Assembly: GCA_039930645.1 (NCBI GenBank)
Contig: JBDTTJ010000002.1
Span: 1-44,571 of the forward strand
DNA length: 44,571 bases
Source: Acidobacteriota bacterium
Lineage (GTDB): Bacteria; Acidobacteriota; Thermoanaerobaculia; UBA5066
Direction of reading: 5' to 3'
Made by a program: the position numbers and the translations under genes. Below, in pieces: positions 5,291 to 29,835 of this stretch (the stretch's first letter is position 1; every line of letters starts with the position of its first letter). Under the pieces are notes generated by a model. It had not been told where the DNA came from, did no database searches, and saw only the letters and a program-made list of their open reading frames with translations.

Positions 5291-5365
5291 CGGGGCGTAG
5301 CGCAGCGGTAGCGCGGCTGCTTTGGGAGCAACAGGTCGCCGGTTCGACCCCGGCCGCCCCGACCA
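5291..5365 (+). tRNA. tRNA-Pro (anticodon UGG)
   Basis: Cloverleaf read by hand. Acceptor CGGGGCG/CGCCCCG; D arm GCGC-AGCGGTA-GCGC; anticodon loop TTTGGGA (UGG, G37); T arm GCCGG-TTCGACC-CCGGC; discriminator A and encoded CCA. Confidence 0.93.
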
Positions 5366-21927: not shown

Positions 21928-23781
<1,854 letters not shown>

Positions 23782-23820
23782 ACGCGCGCGGCGCGCGCGC
23801 GTGCGCTACCATCGCGCCCC

Positions 23821-26205
23821 TTGGTCGCCCGCCCGGAAGATCTCCTCGAAGGCCTCAATCCCGAACAGGCCGCCGCCGTCTCGCACGGCGAAGGGCCGCT
23901 TCTCGTCCTCGCAGGGGCCGGCTCGGGGAAGACGCGCGTCCTGACGCGCCGGCTCGCGTGGCTCGTCGCGCACGGCGTCCCGCAGGAGGCGATCGTCGCC
24001 GTCACGTTCACGAACAAGGCCGCCGGCGAGATGAAGGAACGCGTCGCGAACCTCCTCGGCACCGAGCGCCCCCGCTCGTACGTCGGGACGTTCCACTCCT
24101 GGGGCGTGCGCCTCCTACGCCGCTTCGCGGACGAGGCGGGCCTCCCTCGGGGGTTCGTCGTCTTCGACTCGGACGACCAGCTCGCGGTCGTCAAGCGCGT
24201 CATGAAGGAGGTCGCGATCCCCGAGAAGTCCGCGACCCCGCGCCAGATCCAGTCGAAGATCTCCACGGCCAAGAACGAGGGCATCTCGCCCGACGACTTC
24301 CCGCGCCGCTTCGGCGACTTCCTCGGCTCGCGCCTCGCGGACGTGGCGCGCCGCTACGAGAAAACGCTCCGGGCGTCACAGGCCCTCGACTTCGACGACC
24401 TCCTCGTCCTCTCGGCCAAGCTCGTGGGCACGAACGAGAAGGTGCGCGATCTCCTCCGCCGCAGCATCCGCCACCTGCTCGTCGACGAGTACCAGGACAC
24501 GAACCGCGTGCAGGCGAAGCTCGTGAAGCTCGTGACGGGCGAGGCCGGCAACCTCTTCGTCGTGGGCGACGAGGACCAGTCCATCTACCGCTGGCGCGGG
24601 GCGGACGTGTCGAACATCCTGGAGTTCACGCGCGACTTTCCGACCGCGAAGACGGTCCGCCTCGAGCGCAACTACCGCTCGACGGCGCCGATCCTGAAGG
24701 CCGCGGGCGCGGTCGTCGCCGAGAACAGGCGCCGCCTCGGCAAGACGCTCAAGGCCACGAAGACGGGCGGGGAAAAGGTGCGGCTCGTCGCGTTCGACGA
24801 GGAGCGCGACGAGGCCCGCGAGATCATCCAGCGCGTTGCCGCGGCGCGGCGCGCCCGGCCGCAGGGCGAAGTGGCGGTCCTCTTTCGCACGAACGCGCAG
24901 TCCCGGCCCTTCGAAGACGAGCTCCTGCGCGGGAACCTGCCGTACATCCTCGTCGGCGGGACGAAGTTCTACGAGCGGGCCGAGATCAAGGACCTCCTCG
25001 CCTACCTGCGCCTCGCGCGGAACCCGGCGGATGGCGTGTCGTTCCGGCGGGTCGTCAACGTCCCCGCGCGGGGCGTGGGCGCCGCGACGCTGGAGGCGCT
25101 CGAGGCCCATGCGGTGGAGAAGGACCTTTCTCTCCTCGCGGCCCTCGACGAACTGCCCTCCGGAATGACGGAGCGGGCGCGGAAGGCCCTGACCGAGTTC
25201 CGGGACCTCGTGAAGCGCCTCGCGGACTTCGGTTCGACGGAGAACGCCGGCGCGGCCTCGCCGAACGGCGCGGCGGCGGTCATGGCGTTCGCGCTGGAGG
25301 AAACGGGCCTCGCGAAGCTCTACGAGAACACCCTCGACCCGCAGGACGAGGCCCGCCGCGAGAACCTCGACGAGCTGCTCGCGGCGGCGCGCGAACACGA
25401 GCGTGCCGCGTCCTACGGCGCCGAGGGCGACGACCCGACGATCGCGGGCTTCCTCGACGCGGTGACGCTGCGCGCGGACGCCGACGAGGCCGACGAGAAG
25501 AAGGGCATCCTCCTCATCACGCTGCACGCCGCCAAGGGCCTGGAGTTCGACGACGTCTTCCTGGCGGGCGCCGAGGACGGCTCGCTGCCGCACGCCTCAT
25601 CGCGCGACGACGACGACGCGTTCGAGGAAGAGCGCCGCCTCGCGTACGTCGGGATGACGCGCGCCAAGGAGCGCCTCACGATCTCGTGGGTCCGGCGCCG
25701 GATGGTGCGCGGAGAGTGGATGAGCCGCGACCGGTCGCCGTTCCTCGACGCGATCCCGGGCGAGGTCGTCGCCTACGAGGACATGACTTCTGGGTTCGGA
25801 GGAAGAACCGGGGAGCTTTTAGGGGGAGGGAGAAGAGGGGATTTCCTAGAAGGTGGAAGAAGCTGGTCGCGCGGCGAGGCGAGGTTCGCCTCGGGCGGCT
25901 CTCTGTTCCCCGACTACGAGAACGAATCCCAGGAACCCTCCCCCTCTTCACCTTCGAAGAAATCCCTCTTCGGCCGTCCCCCGATGCGGAACATCACCCC
26001 CGTCAGGGGGGTGATGAAGCGGACGCCGCCGCCGCCGACCGCCTCAGGCTTCCGGCGCGGGTCGAAGGTGCTGCATCCCGAGTACGGAGTCGGGGTGGTC
26101 CTTACGGTGGAAGGCTCCGGCGACGCGGAGAAGCTGGTCGTCTACTTCGACCGGGCCGGCCGCAAGAAGTTCGTCGCGAAGTTCGCGAACCTGTCGCCGG
26201 CCTAG
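23821..26205 (+). CDS. uvrD: ATP-dependent DNA helicase, UvrD/PcrA family
   Basis: Motifs LNPEQAAAV, AGAGSGKT, VTFTNKAA, DEYQDTN, YRS, TLHAAKGLEF, VGMTRA, plus a C-terminal Tudor-like VLHPEYGVGVV. The only in-frame start after the glmS stop is TTG at 23821. Confidence 0.92.
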   Translation: MVARPEDLLEGLNPEQAAAVSHGEGPLLVLAGAGSGKTRVLTRRLAWLVAHGVPQEAIVAVTFTNKAAGEMKERVANLLGTERPRSYVGTFHSWGVRLLRRFADEAGLPRGFVVFDSDDQLAVVKRVMKEVAIPEKSATPRQIQSKISTAKNEGISPDDFPRRFGDFLGSRLADVARRYEKTLRASQALDFDDLLVLSAKLVGTNEKVRDLLRRSIRHLLVDEYQDTNRVQAKLVKLVTGEAGNLFVVGDEDQSIYRWRGADVSNILEFTRDFPTAKTVRLERNYRSTAPILKAAGAVVAENRRRLGKTLKATKTGGEKVRLVAFDEERDEAREIIQRVAAARRARPQGEVAVLFRTNAQSRPFEDELLRGNLPYILVGGTKFYERAEIKDLLAYLRLARNPADGVSFRRVVNVPARGVGAATLEALEAHAVEKDLSLLAALDELPSGMTERARKALTEFRDLVKRLADFGSTENAGAASPNGAAAVMAFALEETGLAKLYENTLDPQDEARRENLDELLAAAREHERAASYGAEGDDPTIAGFLDAVTLRADADEADEKKGILLITLHAAKGLEFDDVFLAGAEDGSLPHASSRDDDDAFEEERRLAYVGMTRAKERLTISWVRRRMVRGEWMSRDRSPFLDAIPGEVVAYEDMTSGFGGRTGELLGGGRRGDFLEGGRSWSRGEARFASGGSLFPDYENESQEPSPSSPSKKSLFGRPPMRNITPVRGVMKRTPPPPTASGFRRGSKVLHPEYGVGVVLTVEGSGDAEKLVVYFDRAGRKKFVAKFANLSPA

Positions 26206-27881
26206 CCGGGATCTTTCGCCAGCGCCGCGACCGCCCTGCGGAGCTTGCCGTGCGCGTCGAAGAGGCGGACGAAGTCGGACTCGCGCCGTCCGCCCTTGGC
26301 CCGGATGACGGCCGCGAGAGCGCGCCTCTCCGCCGCCGACCAGGCCCTTACGCCCGGCAGGACCGAGACGAGCGGCGCCCAGCGCCGGAAGGCGAGGCGC
26401 TCGGCACCCGTCCAGCCGCCCATCCGCGCGCCGAGCAGGCGCGCCGCCTCCGCGGTCAGGACCGCCTCCGCCCTCTCGCGATCCGACCCGAAACGCGCGG
26501 CCACCATGTCGACGACGCGGAGTCCGACGTTCGGCAGCTCGACGAGGCCGATCGCGTCGCTGCGCTCCCGTCCGCCGAACCAGTAGAGGTTCTCCGAGGC
26601 GAGGATCTTGAGGTCCGGGAGGGAGGTGCGGTGCTTCGGGTCCGCGGCCATCCGCCGCTCTTCCTCGTGCATGAGCGCCACGGCGCGGGGAGCCCGGGGC
26701 GCAAAACCGAGCTTGCGGTAGAACCACCACGCGCCCGATTGAAGCGCCTCGGGGTTGCCGTAGCCGCCGAGCTGGTACGGAAAGATCGTGAAGACGTCCG
26801 AGCCGAAGAGGGCGCGCGACATCGAGAGAACCTTGCCGTAGACGAGGCCCGACTCGCCGCCGCGGAACGACTCGAAGACGTTGTAGGCGATCTCGGAGGA
26901 GCCGAAGAGAGCGCTCGTGAGGACGTAACCGATCGGGGCGCCGTTTTTCAGCGTCAGGAACCCGTAGACCGACTCGAGGAGCAGCCGGCGCTCGGGAACG
27001 ACGCCTATCGCGGCGAAGGCGAGTCCATCCGGGTACGTCACGAGGCGGACGTCCTCCGGGTCGCCCCACTGGAACGCGTCGAGGTCCCGCGCCCGCGCGA
27101 CCATCGCTTCCTTCGCGAGGTCGAGATAGCGCTCGGCATCCCGGCGGGGGACGGCCTCGACGGAGAGCGGCGGCCGGGCGATCTCGCGGCGGACGTCGGG
27201 GCGTCCGCGGTCGAGGGGCGTGGTCTGGAAGACGACGGGCGCCGTCCGGATGCATGCGTTGGTGCGGGCCGGAGTGCCGGGGCCGGGCTCGAGGACGAGC
27301 GGCAGCTCGAGTCCCTCCCAGGACCACTCCTTCTCGAACGTCCCCTTGCCGAGCGTCGCGAACCTCCGGACGAGAAACGCGGCGTCGGTCTCCTTCGAGC
27401 CCTTGAGGCGCTTCACCCAGGCGCGTATCCCGAGATCGAGCTCGTCGAGGGCAGGCGTCTCGGCCCAGAGCGTGACGAGGGGGAGGAGGCGCTCGAGAGC
27501 GGCGCCCTTTTCGAACCGCCGCCAGTCCACGCGGAGATGTTTGCCCCAGCGCGCGGCGAGCCAGCGCGCGGTGCCGGCAAAGAAGGGGAAGCGTGTCTTC
27601 GTGCCCGCGATGCCGCTGTCCTCCAGCGCGGTGCGGTGACGCTTCAGGTCGGGCCGCCGGGCGAAGCGCGCGAGGAGAACCTCGGTGCGCGCGAGCACGG
27701 CCGCGTCGTCCGGATAAGCGCGCAGGAAGCACAGCGTCTCGTGCAGCCGCTCGACGTCTCTCGCGGTGCCGAGCCGGGCGCGCGCGACGACGTCCAGCGC
27801 CGCGAGCCGCCGGGCGGCTGCCGAGGGGCCTCGCTCGGTCCGCGCCGCCTCGAGGACGCGGAGGGCCTCGCGGGCGGTCAC
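26202..27881 (-). CDS. hypothetical 559-aa protein with a central GNAT-like segment, co-operonic with padR
   Basis: The GTG start overlaps the padR stop (GTGA at 27881-27878). The central region GFLTLKNGAPIGYV...FRGGESG...GAWWFYRKLGF resembles an acyl-CoA N-acyltransferase fold. The rest is unassigned. Confidence 0.6.
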   Translation of the reverse strand: MTAREALRVLEAARTERGPSAAARRLAALDVVARARLGTARDVERLHETLCFLRAYPDDAAVLARTEVLLARFARRPDLKRHRTALEDSGIAGTKTRFPFFAGTARWLAARWGKHLRVDWRRFEKGAALERLLPLVTLWAETPALDELDLGIRAWVKRLKGSKETDAAFLVRRFATLGKGTFEKEWSWEGLELPLVLEPGPGTPARTNACIRTAPVVFQTTPLDRGRPDVRREIARPPLSVEAVPRRDAERYLDLAKEAMVARARDLDAFQWGDPEDVRLVTYPDGLAFAAIGVVPERRLLLESVYGFLTLKNGAPIGYVLTSALFGSSEIAYNVFESFRGGESGLVYGKVLSMSRALFGSDVFTIFPYQLGGYGNPEALQSGAWWFYRKLGFAPRAPRAVALMHEEERRMAADPKHRTSLPDLKILASENLYWFGGRERSDAIGLVELPNVGLRVVDMVAARFGSDRERAEAVLTAEAARLLGARMGGWTGAERLAFRRWAPLVSVLPGVRAWSAAERRALAAVIRAKGGRRESDFVRLFDAHGKLRRAVAALAKDPG

Positions 27882-28396
27882 GGGCGCTCCTTCGCGGCGG
27901 GGCCGAGCGAGCGGCCCGCGAGGAGCGCGGCCGACTCCGCGTCGGCCCACGCGAGCTCCGTCTCGAGCAGGACGCGTCGTCGGCGCCGCGCGGCGGTCGT
28001 GCCGGTCGCAGCGCGCTGGAGCTCGTCGGCGAGGAGGCCGCGATATTCCTGCAGGCGCCGCATGCGGTCGGGCGGAAGGCCGCGCTCGAGGAGGGCGAGC
28101 CTCGCGAGAGTCGCGTCGTGCGGGCGGGGGAGCGCGTAGGGCTCGGCGAGCCAGTCCTTCAGCTCACGGCGGCCGGACGGCGTCACGCGGTACTCCCGCC
28201 GCGGAGGTCCCTGCGGCGAGCGCCGCCGCTTGAGGGAGACGAATCCGCCGCGCAGGAGACGGCGCAAAGCCGGGTAGATCTGGGAGAGATCCGCGTCCCA
28301 TCCACGCGCGGGATCCTCGGAGAGCCTCCGCTTGAGATCCCATCCGCTGGCCGGAGCGGTCGAGAGAAGGCCGAGCAGGACGTGCGAGAGCGACAT
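27878..28396 (-). CDS. PadR-family transcriptional regulator
   Basis: N-terminal winged-helix pattern LLGLL...SGWDLKRRL......IYPALRRLLRGGFV...Y.VT..GR.EL..WL. Confidence 0.88.
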   Translation of the reverse strand: MSLSHVLLGLLSTAPASGWDLKRRLSEDPARGWDADLSQIYPALRRLLRGGFVSLKRRRSPQGPPRREYRVTPSGRRELKDWLAEPYALPRPHDATLARLALLERGLPPDRMRRLQEYRGLLADELQRAATGTTAARRRRRVLLETELAWADAESAALLAGRSLGPAAKERP

Positions 28397-28402
28397 GCCG
28401 TG

Positions 28403-28433
28403 AGTATATGAGACTTCACATACCGCCGTGCAA
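28403..28433 (-). promoter_or_regulatory. candidate padR promoter (leaderless) with overlapping imperfect inverted repeat
   Basis: On the minus strand, TTGCAC (28433-28428) is followed by a 19-nt spacer and TATACT (28408-28403). Only 6 nt separate the -10 from the ATG at 28396, and there is no SD. The inverted repeat GTATATGAGA/CTTCACATAC (28404-28423, 7 of 10 positions pair) lies between the -35 and -10. Confidence 0.35.
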
Positions 28434-28493
28434 AACCCGAGGAATACGCTGTGGAAATCTCAGGGTCCGGGGAACGCCAGGATGGCGCCCGGA

Positions 28494-28523
28494 CAAAAAA
28501 ATAAGGGGGCTGGTGTAGCCCCC
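28494..28523 (-). terminator. intrinsic terminator downstream of the micro-ORF
   Basis: The minus strand reads GGGGGC-UACACCA-GCCCCC followed by UUAUUUUUUUUG. Confidence 0.7.
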
Positions 28524-28568
28524 GAATCCCGGAAATACCTTGAATTGGAATGGTTTGAAGTAACTAAG

Positions 28569-28631
28569 TTACTTCTTACCCTTCTTCGCCTTCTTGGTGC
28601 TCTTCTTAGCAGCTTTCTTCTTGGCCGGCAT
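28569..28631 (-). CDS. 20-aa lysine-rich micro-protein MPAKKKAAKKSTKKAKKGKK (not in the ORF track)
   Basis: ATG at 28631 and TAA at 28571-28569. Extended SD TAAGGAGGTGA at 28650-28640. AAG:AAA = 11:1 and GC3 is about 79% inside an island of about 51% GC. It has its own promoter and terminator. Confidence 0.6.
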   Translation of the reverse strand: MPAKKKAAKKSTKKAKKGKK

Positions 28632-28663
28632 GGTTTCTGTCACCTCCTTACTGGCAGGTTTCG

Positions 28664-28693
28664 TTGACAGTGCCGGAAGCTGCATGCTAGGTT
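28664..28693 (+). promoter_or_regulatory. candidate sigma70-type promoter for an antisense RNA
   Basis: Consensus -35 TTGACA (28664-28669), an 18-nt spacer, then -10 TAGGTT (28688-28693). Confidence 0.45.
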
Positions 28694-28699
28694 GTCCGC

Positions 28700-28834
28700 C
28701 CCTCGAAGGACGGGGACTAGCGCTTCCGGATTCTGTCGACTGCCCTGAGTCACTTGAGAGAGTCGATCGATTTCAAAAGATCTGGTTCCCGTGAGACGGC
28801 ATCGTGAATCGATCACGGTGCCGTCTCTTTTTTT
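28700..28834 (+). ncRNA. candidate ~135-nt antisense sRNA, complementary to the micro-ORF leader
   Basis: Bounded by the promoter above and the strong terminator at 28793-28834. An A/U-rich single-stranded stretch (AUUUCAAAAGAUCU) precedes the terminator. The nearest upstream + strand gene ends at 26205. Confidence 0.45.
28793..28834 (+). terminator. strong intrinsic terminator with no upstream + strand CDS
   Basis: GAGACGGCAUCGUGA-AUCGA-UCACGGUGCCGUCUC forms a 15-bp stem with one G-U pair, followed by UUUUUUU. Confidence 0.75.
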
Positions 28835-28845
28835 CTGCTGAGTGA

Positions 28846-28875
28846 ATTGTATAGAGCCTCGACGGCACGAATCAA
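28846..28875 (-). promoter_or_regulatory. candidate sigma70-type promoter of the micro-ORF transcript
   Basis: On the minus strand, TTGATT (28875-28870) is followed by 18 nt and TACAAT (28851-28846). The alternative is TATACA with a 16-nt spacer. An A-tract (AAGAAAAAAATTC) sits immediately upstream. The predicted TSS is near 28839. Confidence 0.5.
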
Positions 28876-28986
28876 GAATTTTTTTCTTGACGGGCGAAGT
28901 TTTTTCACCCGCTCGTTCGCCACCTCGCGGGGGGTCTCGCGCGCATCCGGGCTAGGATCGCGCGCGGAGAGAATCGGAGATCTCAC

Positions 28987-29835
28987 ATGACGGACGCACT
29001 CGTTCTCGCTCACTCGCCCGACTCCGACGACGCGTTCATGTTCTACGGACTGCGCGCGAACGCCGTGGACACGGAGGGCGTCACCTACACGCACACGCTC
29101 GCCGACATCGAGACGCTCAACCGGCGCGCGCTCTCGGGCGAGCTCGCGATCACGGCCGTGTCGTTCCACGCGTACGCCTACCTCGCGGACCGCTACGTGC
29201 TCCTCCCGCACGGCGCGTCGTTCGGCGACGGTTACGGCCCCTGCGTCGTGGCGCGCCGCGAGGGCGGGCCGCGCACGCTCGCCGACCTGGCCGGAAAGCG
29301 CGTGGCGGTTCCGGGAAAGCTCACGTCCGCCGCGATGTGCCTCTCGCTCTACGCGAAGGATGCGACGCCCGTCGTCATGGCCTTCGACGAGGTCGGCGAC
29401 GCCGTGAACGCCGGCACCGTGGACGCGGGCGTCGTGATCCACGAGGGCCAGCTCACCTGGAAGGACGAGGGGTTTCACCTCGTGGCGGACTTCGGCGTCG
29501 TCTGGAAGGAGGAGACGGGGCTCCCGCTACCCCTCGGCGGCAACGCCGTCCGCCGCGACCTGGGGCCCGAGCTCATCGCGCGGGTGTCGCGCGCCCTCGG
29601 CCGCTCGATCGAGTACGCCCTCGCGCACCGCGAGGATGCCCTCACGGACGCGATGCGCTTCGCGCGCGGCCTCCCCCGCGAGAAGGCCGACCGCTTCGTC
29701 GGGATGTACGTGAACGACTGGACCCGCTCCTACGGGCCGAAGGGCCGGCAAGCCGTTCGCCTCTTCCTGAGAAGGGGGGTCGAAGCCGGCATTCTCCCGA
29801 AGCTCGTCGAGCCGGAGTGGGTGGCGGAGGGTTGA
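28987..29835 (+). CDS. MqnA/MqnD-family (futalosine-pathway menaquinone biosynthesis, periplasmic-binding-protein fold) protein
   Basis: Motifs LAHSPDSDDAFMFYGL, DIETLNRRAL.GEL..TAVS.HAY and GDGYGP. GGAGA lies 7 nt upstream of the ATG. I cannot decide between MqnA and MqnD. Confidence 0.78.
   Translation: MTDALVLAHSPDSDDAFMFYGLRANAVDTEGVTYTHTLADIETLNRRALSGELAITAVSFHAYAYLADRYVLLPHGASFGDGYGPCVVARREGGPRTLADLAGKRVAVPGKLTSAAMCLSLYAKDATPVVMAFDEVGDAVNAGTVDAGVVIHEGQLTWKDEGFHLVADFGVVWKEETGLPLPLGGNAVRRDLGPELIARVSRALGRSIEYALAHREDALTDAMRFARGLPREKADRFVGMYVNDWTRSYGPKGRQAVRLFLRRGVEAGILPKLVEPEWVAEG

Follow-up and report, generated by a model that had tools for sequence, protein, structure and literature searches.

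Organization of the locus

The DNA analysed here (the window) is a stretch of 44,571 nucleotides (nt) from contig JBDTTJ010000002.1 (assembly GCA_039930645.1) of an Acidobacteriota bacterium, whose closest genomes, by sequence comparison, are metagenome-assembled genomes (MAGs) of Thermoanaerobaculia/Acidobacteriota. Its minus strand carries, at 28631-28569, an open reading frame (ORF) of 20 codons, with the ATG at 28631 and the TAA stop at 28571-28569, as read from the sequence and from comparative data. The codons (ATG CCG GCC AAG AAG AAA GCT GCT AAG AAG AGC ACC AAG AAG GCG AAG AAG GGT AAG AAG TAA) are translated as MPAKKKAAKKSTKKAKKGKK (20 amino acids, aa), a peptide with 11 Lys among its 20 residues, an isoelectric point (pI) of 11.0 and a net charge of about +10.5. 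On the comparative evidence presented below, this micro-ORF is a genuine, separately transcribed, protein-coding micro-gene. Codons and coordinates were read again and agree with the initial annotation, which had been made from the letters of the window. Its count of 12 Lys and its AAG:AAA ratio of 11:1 are corrected here to 11 Lys and 10:1, and its estimate of about 79% GC at third codon positions (GC3) is close to the computed value of 0.80. The preference for AAG represents the plain norm of the host, since the long ORFs of the window contain 414 AAG against 29 AAA codons.

The micro-ORF, together with its expression signals (hereafter the cassette), is flanked on one side by a divergent gene of the mqnA family (PF02621), followed by a DUF4149 gene, both on the plus strand. 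The other flank holds, on the strand of the micro-ORF, a gene for a PadR-family regulator (padR) and then a 582-aa ORF. The order mqnA-cassette-padR was invariant in all loci that could be inspected, namely 97/97 loci with enough upstream sequence and 112/112 with enough downstream sequence.

Distribution of the cassette

Contigs of close relatives were recovered from many metagenomes. Their genes are 90-94% identical to those of the window and the intergenic island is 95-97% identical, so that the island is slightly better conserved than the genes that flank it. Within the ORF, these relatives differ by two substitutions, both synonymous and both at third positions. A nhmmer search identified the cassette in the same slot of three further Acidobacteriota MAGs (L016, L019 and L022, where L numbers designate collected loci), in which MqnA is only about 63% identical. 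These represent a second, more distant clade, here called clade B, whose peptides start with MATKKK and are of the MATKKKAAKK(A)(T)KKGGKKKK type (19-20 aa); the clade of the window is called clade A.

Metagenome contigs were also scanned with a leader-only pattern that ends at GGAGG and contains no ORF sequence, which returned at least 120 stretches. Across all collected loci, 137 matches to the leader pattern were listed, and 131 of them carry an intact, ATG-initiated, Lys-rich ORF, while 4 are cut by contig ends. The remaining two (L099, 3180-3248, and L192, about 1540-1605) are mutually homologous and have no Lys ORF; there, the pattern (GGGCGG..AA..TAGCA...CTGTCAA...GGAGG) adjoins a gene beginning MPELKLGTKFECYNCGTKFYDL. 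The possibility that they reveal a broader RNA motif upstream of other genes was rejected, as they amount to one unrelated locus and about one chance match is expected.

A profile search over 1.64 Mb of collected loci found one cassette copy per locus, and the 136 copies that cover the ORF region are all intact. The initial annotation had named a frame broken between conserved flanks as the sign of a non-coding RNA; no disrupted frame was encountered. Three additional loci, selected through PadR and not matching the leader pattern, still carry the cassette, with peptides of 21-24 aa such as MATKKAAKKAAKKPAKKAAKKGK. These loci came from a search for distant PadR homologues, aimed at whether the peptide accompanies padR beyond this lineage, which returned solely relatives with at least 64% identity. 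When about 975 kb of related high-GC loci were screened on both strands for other ORFs of 12-45 aa with at least 45% Lys and a preceding Shine-Dalgarno (SD) site, none was found beyond the family. Among 80 species representatives retrieved through mqnA, with about 6 kb inspected on each side of that gene, the cassette is present in 5.

Selection on the encoded peptide

ORF lengths of 60, 63, 66, 69 and 72 nt were observed in the pattern-selected set; those of the three PadR-selected loci are 66, 72 and 75 nt, so that the lengths differ by multiples of three only. Because AAG repeats may slip in units of three, the coding case is based on codon-level tests. The pattern-selected set comprises 72 nucleotide versions, which encode 29 peptides; all four GCN codons are used for Ala, and Ser codons switch between AGC and TCN with Ser kept. 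Codon changes were counted on a minimum spanning tree, which approximates independent events. This analysis yielded 131 synonymous and 75 nonsynonymous changes, compared with a neutral synonymous fraction of 0.20 (P=6e-42), and 57, 52 and 168 nucleotide changes at codon positions 1, 2 and 3, respectively.

The replacements that do occur are narrowly restricted. None of the 75 falls outside K/A/G/S/T/P/R, as opposed to an expected 61%, and no stop codon has arisen. Summed over the distinct nucleotide versions, the encoded residues are K 824, A 310, T 122, G 92, S 38, P 14 and R 1; no other residue occurs once the initiator Met is set aside, and hydrophobic and acidic residues are lacking altogether. 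The number of basic residues is exactly 11 in each of the 32 distinct peptides, whose lengths range from 19 to 24 aa. Lys positions shift and small residues are inserted across the family, and the count of 11 remains constant.

Taken together, these observations indicate that the micro-ORF is very probably translated and selected as a protein. The proposal of the initial annotation, a translated frame under frame-specific selection, is borne out by the 131:75 ratio, the intact frames and the third-position bias. Type I toxin peptides have a hydrophobic segment that inserts into membranes, together with an antisense RNA; here, the peptide contains no hydrophobic residue, and no promoter-like site was found on the plus strand in 28000-29400. 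A toxin-like role is unlikely, given the lack of hydrophobic residues.

The description of the ORF as unannotated was nearly correct. However, gene finders had called an extended version of 38 aa in at least 23 metagenome contigs, and in L213 a homologue of 24 aa (MATKKAAKKTAKKAAKKPAKKASK, 2228-2302) had been called as a gene by JGI. The family is thus sporadically and inconsistently present in public gene calls. The 38-aa ORF was rejected as the conserved unit, as its start codon reads ACG in L013, no SD site precedes it and clade B lacks an equivalent; since this upstream ATG is lost in L013, the conserved unit is the 20-aa ORF behind the SD. Readings from a GTG start inside GGAGGTGAC were also discarded, being Arg-rich, out-of-frame artefacts and not family ORFs.

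Expression signals

The micro-gene lies in an AT-rich island. The window has a GC content of 0.715, and 400-nt windows below 0.60 occur solely at 28251-29150, where the minimum is 0.505. The segment 28501-28920, for which the initial annotation had counted about 51% GC by hand in what it regarded as the only AT-rich island, measures 0.507, and the island is indeed unique in the window.

Within the island, a sigma-70-type promoter is predicted on the minus strand at 28846..28875, with the -35 element TTGATT (28875-28870), an 18-nt spacer and the -10 element TACAAT (28851-28846). The near-consensus promoter described earlier is the sole promoter-like match in 28000-29400, where shuffled sequences give a mean of 0.2, and it places the predicted transcription start at about 28839. 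Directly upstream of the -35 element, an A-tract (AAGAAAAAAA, 28879..28888, minus strand) may serve as an UP element; the equivalent region is also A-rich in clade A members (alignment A3). In clade B, a matching TTGTTG...TAnAAT promoter is present at the same place.

The SD site TAAGGAGGTGA (28640..28650, minus strand) ends 8 nt before the ATG. The long SD match reported previously is present there, and GGAGGTGA occurs once in the 44.5-kb window, both strands considered, and is invariant in 76 representatives. The spacing from SD to ATG and the ATG itself are invariant across the family.

Downstream, the intrinsic terminator reported earlier was located on the minus strand at 28494..28523, where GGGGGCUACACCAGCCCCC (stem 28523-28505) is followed by the T-run UUAUUUUUUU, beginning 45 nt past the micro-ORF stop. 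A terminator-like hairpin with a T-run is found in 107/107 unique family sequences. A smaller hairpin, GAAGUAAC-UUA-GUUACUUC (28557..28575, minus strand), spans the last Lys codon and the stop. Its clade B counterpart (GUAAGUC...GACUUAC) covaries, one pair being GC in 31, AU in 19 and GU in 7 sequences, and the hairpin is absent in L012. On the plus strand, the 5' hairpin of the micro-gene, read in reverse and followed by TTTTTTT (28793-28837), scores as a terminator. No promoter or gene lies upstream of it on that strand, and it probably just reflects the A-rich 5' end, although an antisense transcript is possible.

Structure of the leader RNA

The predicted transcript of the window folds at -130 kcal/mol (z=-5.8). 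At its 5' end, a GC-rich hairpin of 15 bp (GAGACGGCACCGUGAUCGAUUCACGAUGCCGUCUC, 28793..28827, minus strand) may stabilise the mRNA. Clade B has a hairpin of different sequence (AUCGCCGGAUGGG...CCCAUCCGGCGAU) at the same position, with GC-to-AU double changes.

Further downstream, a conserved structured domain occupies 28653..28744 on the minus strand and ends 2 nt before the SD. Its outer helix is formed by GGCAG (28744-28740) with CUGCC (28657-28653) and by GACAG (28737-28733) with CUGUC (28670-28666). In the window, the inner helix consists of CCGGAAGC (28729-28722) and GCUUCCGG (28680-28673), and the GC hairpin is CCGUCCU-UCGA-GGGGCGG, with an invariant bulge AA..UAGCA. Clade-wise RNAalifold predictions agree on one architecture for both clades, in which the outer helix encloses the inner helix and the GC hairpin.

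Among 96 unique sequences, all variants of the inner helix (GGCGA/UCGCC, CGCG/CGCG, CCGGAAGC/GCUUCCGG) and of the GC hairpin (CGCCCCU/GGGGGCG, CCGUCCU/GGGGCGG, CCGUCCU/GGGACGG) retain pairing, and the differences between the clades in these two helices are compensatory. The comparison between clades was made by anchor-based tabulation; MAFFT placed the two clades out of register, and the same problem affected RNAalifold on the mixed-clade alignment, which gave a weak result. Overall, 92% of the leader cells are paired, compared with 42-49% when the partners are slid, and nine leader pairs show double changes, a number matched by 0/500 shuffles. The overall covariation score is not above that of the shuffles, because most columns hardly vary.

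Column identity was calculated for 76 representatives with less than 93% identity. Mean values are 0.83 for the 5' hairpin, 0.86 for the leader domain (30/86 columns invariant), 0.89 from SD to ATG, 0.88 for the ORF and 0.87 for the terminator; the 3' untranslated region (0.65) and the upstream (0.60) and downstream (0.51) flanks have lower values. Among close relatives, the leader is fully invariant. At gathering scores, the Rfam matches in the window are a transfer-messenger RNA (tmRNA) and a tRNA, both outside the island, which itself gave no match. Permissive scans of the window island, L019 and L212 gave matches driven by the terminator or hairpins alone, far below gathering scores.

The predicted ensemble leaves most of the SD base-paired (unpaired probability 0.23). 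Its partner is an invariant CACCUC just 3' of the bulge in clade B (CACCUC:GAGGUG, probability about 1) and the 3' strand of the outer helix in clade A. If the SD and AUG are constrained to be unpaired, the consensus domain becomes the best fold, and the opening costs about 6.5 kcal/mol. Modelled in this way, a two-state translational switch by SD sequestration is possible, if poorly supported.

These features are relevant to the reading of the locus as a non-coding or dual-function small RNA of roughly 300-345 nt, in which the ORF would be incidental or would merely modulate the RNA. Such RNAs exist, as exemplified by SgrS/SgrT and RNAIII/hld, and the conservation of the leader at about the level of the ORF, its 30 invariant columns and its invariance among close relatives, the z-score of the fold and the discrete boundaries set by promoter and terminator are in line with one. 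An incidental ORF, however, would show neither selection at P=6e-42, nor Ser codon-family switches, restricted replacements and a fixed basic count, and the SD-to-ATG spacing and the ATG are themselves invariant. We consider this alternative quite unlikely; an additional function at the RNA level beside the coding role is possible.

The conserved fold just upstream of the SD of a short ORF, with an SD that can be sequestered, resembles the structured leaders of ribosomal proteins and small proteins as well as riboswitches. Among the latter, the glutamine-binding 'Downstream-peptide' motif is located upstream of short ORFs in cyanobacteria. Unlike these known leaders and riboswitches, the domain described here has no match in Rfam 15 and no known ligand or protein partner, and the predicted switch is barely above shuffles.

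Relationship to padR

Among the 80 species representatives, padR is located next to mqnA only in the five that bear the cassette. The co-occurrence of cassette and padR may reflect either a functional link or shared ancestry. The boundary with the next transcription unit is found at 28394..28423 on the minus strand and contains a palindrome, a -10-like box and the padR start. The palindrome GTATGTGAAGTCTCATATAC (28423-28404), outside the cassette, overlaps a -10-like TATACT (28408-28403) located 6 nt before the padR ATG at 28396. The palindrome is conserved, reading CTATATC-N6-GATATAG in clade B; in the family it contains a -10-like TATAGT or TATACT and its end is always 6-7 nt before the padR start. 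None of 68 padR homologues has an SD before its start codon, which is ATG in 32, GTG in 32 and TTG in 4. From this layout, we infer that padR is leaderless and autoregulated from its own promoter.

The terminator of the micro-gene was modelled in 75 representatives, and its stem forms with a probability of 0.94 when no ribosome is present; the value is 0.92 for a ribosome placed at the stop and 0.96 for one stalled in mid-ORF. The micro-gene would accordingly constitute its own transcription unit, given this ribosome-independent terminator and the leaderless promoter/operator layout of padR.

The arrangement also invites comparison with the his, phe, thr and trp attenuators, which likewise combine a short ORF rich in one codon, a nearby terminator and a downstream gene on the same strand. 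A Lys-sensing leader peptide, an option not raised in the initial annotation, would attenuate padR if the progress of the ribosome over the 11 Lys codons decided whether the terminator forms. With 11 Lys among 20 codons, the ORF matches classical leader peptides in size; padR follows on the same strand a further 98 nt beyond the terminator, cassette and padR occur together in 112/112 loci and beside mqnA in the five representatives mentioned above, and complementarities of the 1:2, 2:3 and 3:4 kind were noted by eye in L019. The terminator stem, however, forms at 0.92-0.96 irrespective of the modelled ribosome position, with no alternative, ribosome-dependent antiterminator, and padR has its own -10-like box within a palindromic operator, no SD in 68/68 homologues, and no relation to lysine. 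Leader peptides, moreover, are unselected beyond their regulatory codons, in contrast to the protein-level selection seen here, with its small-residue replacements and a basic count fixed at 11, and classical attenuators do not have a long, conserved, structured 5' leader of 170-210 nt. Attenuation of padR is therefore very improbable.

Beyond padR, the genomic context differs between the clades. The 582-aa ORF (26202-27950, minus strand) overlaps the end of padR, contains no Pfam domain and is conserved in the clade of the window alone, where identity is 59% or more. Clade B, L212 and L216 lack this ORF, and there a convergent uvrD-type helicase gene directly follows padR.

Comparison with known peptides

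Searches of Pfam and NCBIfam with the peptide gave 0 families at E<=10; the query is short and of low complexity, and composition filters make such a search insensitive. The same insensitivity applies to the PDB sequence search with the peptide profile and a 24-mer, which gave 0 matches at E<=10. An exact-sequence protein look-up with the peptide found no match, and literature searches returned no description of such a peptide.

The closest parallels in size and charge are the tiny, very basic, ribosome-bound proteins bL37 (24 aa, pI 12.0) and bS22 (33 aa, pI 12.75), the first of which is unannotated in Mycobacterium tuberculosis (PMC10081302). Like bL37, bS22 and bTHX, the micro-protein has about 20-30 aa and an extreme positive charge, is encoded by a separate small gene overlooked by annotation pipelines, and would presumably bind RNA phosphates through Lys salt bridges (PMC10081302). 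With 19-24 aa and a pI of 11.0, it also falls within the limits of tiny basic ribosomal proteins (fewer than about 35 residues and a very high pI). It differs from them in sharing no sequence similarity, in being composed of Lys and small residues with no Arg, aromatic or His residues in the window peptide, and in the drift of its length and Lys positions at a fixed count of 11.

A lineage-specific structural ribosomal protein of this type, autoregulated through a leader that would mimic its rRNA site, would fit the size, the pI and the very strong expression signals, and the 11 invariant charges suggest a binding site of defined size. Structured leaders next to an SD are typical of ribosomal-protein autoregulation. 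That such peptides exist and escape annotation is illustrated by bL37 and bS22 (PMC10081302). The lack of any NCBIfam, Pfam or PDB chain match at E<=10 argues against this reading, as do the low complexity and the variable length and Lys positions, compared with the sequence-specific conservation of the known tiny proteins, and the presence of the cassette in only two clades among the loci examined. On balance, a structural ribosomal protein appears rather unlikely.

A second parallel is provided by Lys-repeat tails, which are disordered and bind DNA by charge (PMC5676037, PMC2932737, PMC3553676, PMC5974015, PMC7398561). The tails of HupB/MDP1, mycobacterial Ku, actinobacterial TopA and histone H1 (PAKKA/KKAA) share with the present family the succession of KK and A/P/T/G spacers, as seen in MATKKAAKKAAKKPAKKAAKKGK. 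Those tails are appended to folded DNA-binding domains, are much longer and vary in charge, whereas the peptide described here is free-standing, has a fixed charge and possesses its own promoter, structured leader and terminator. No folded domain is fused to it, since the reading frame of every member opens at an ATG behind the SD and closes at a stop, and the upstream in-frame extension is not conserved.

It is also conceivable that the product is exported, as a polycationic antimicrobial or at the cell surface, or that it is a precursor modified by the products of neighbouring genes. Oligolysines and epsilon-poly-lysine are reported to have antimicrobial and membrane-crossing activity (PMC9606270), and in the clade of the window an uncharacterised 582-aa gene follows padR. 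The peptide, however, has no signal peptide, no hydrophobic residue and no leader/core organisation, its gene has no conserved transporter or modification enzyme as a neighbour, and the 582-aa gene is absent in clade B, L212 and L216. Such a role is highly unlikely.

Other features of the window

Outside the island, a tmRNA gene is present on the minus strand at 182-542 (Rfam, 166 bits), with the tag peptide ANTSDYALAA, and ARAGORN agrees with this assignment. A tRNA-Pro (TGG) gene was identified by Rfam and ARAGORN at 5291-5365 on the plus strand. Opposite padR and the 582-aa gene, a GTG-initiated ORF of 2069 aa extends over 21930-28139 on the plus strand. Its translation is rich in Arg, Gly and Pro, and for this reason it is regarded as a high-GC artefact and not as a gene.

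Proposed function and significance

In the interpretation that we favour, the micro-gene encodes a defined-charge polycation whose targets are RNA, ribosomes or DNA and whose expression is tuned through the leader; we consider this reasonably probable. The mRNA expected from the sigma-70-type promoter measures about 345 nt in the window, against a family average of about 300 nt, and would comprise, in this order, the stable 5' hairpin, the folded domain, the unusually long SD, the ORF of 19-24 codons and the strong intrinsic terminator. The product would be an unstructured polycation in which KK dyads are spaced by one or two small residues, comparable to tiny basic ribosomal proteins or to the Lys-repeat tails found on HupB and histone H1, and yet free-standing. 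Selection would act on composition and on exactly 11 positive side chains, not on the precise sequence, and the peptide would act by charge on a polyanion of defined size, most likely RNA or the ribosome and otherwise nucleoid DNA. The leader domain may set the amount of peptide, and it may compete with the SD-sequestering fold, possibly with feedback by the peptide.

Several points weigh against this interpretation. The function is inferred from composition alone, and transcription and translation are themselves predicted. Frame-preserving indels are by themselves weak evidence in a repeat that can slip in threes, and the sequence variability and repeat-like length changes are unlike those of known tiny ribosomal proteins. 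In the genomes examined around mqnA, the cassette is confined to two related clades of Acidobacteriota and to a single genomic position, and a core component of the ribosome or nucleoid might be expected to be more widespread. As for the leader, its covariation is only modest, and at least 4 SD bases are paired in 76% of sequences compared with 54% when the upstream sequence is shuffled, with the same opening cost of 6.5 kcal/mol.

A more elaborate version of the proposal would regard the cassette as a homeostatic 'encoded polyamine' module. The leader, a riboswitch-like or peptide-sensing RNA, would open the SD when polycation is needed or close it in the presence of free peptide, and the 11-charge oligolysine would be tuned to one nucleic-acid site, for instance about one turn of RNA helix in the ribosome. 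We regard this version as unlikely; if true, the leader would represent a new class of cis-regulatory RNA, and the peptide one of charge-counted micro-proteins.

Very small proteins are systematically overlooked by annotation, and few of them are accompanied by strong evidence of selection. For the family described here, over a hundred independent variants from soil and sediment metagenomes show selection at the protein level. The constraint is unusual in that sequence, length and Lys positions drift and the number of positive charges stays at 11, which points to a binding site of defined size, a prediction that can be tested with an easily synthesised peptide. The undescribed structured leader could be a new translational control element. 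If an association of the peptide with the ribosome or the nucleoid is true, the family would represent a new component of the basic cell biology of the Acidobacteriota, an abundant and poorly cultured phylum of soil bacteria.

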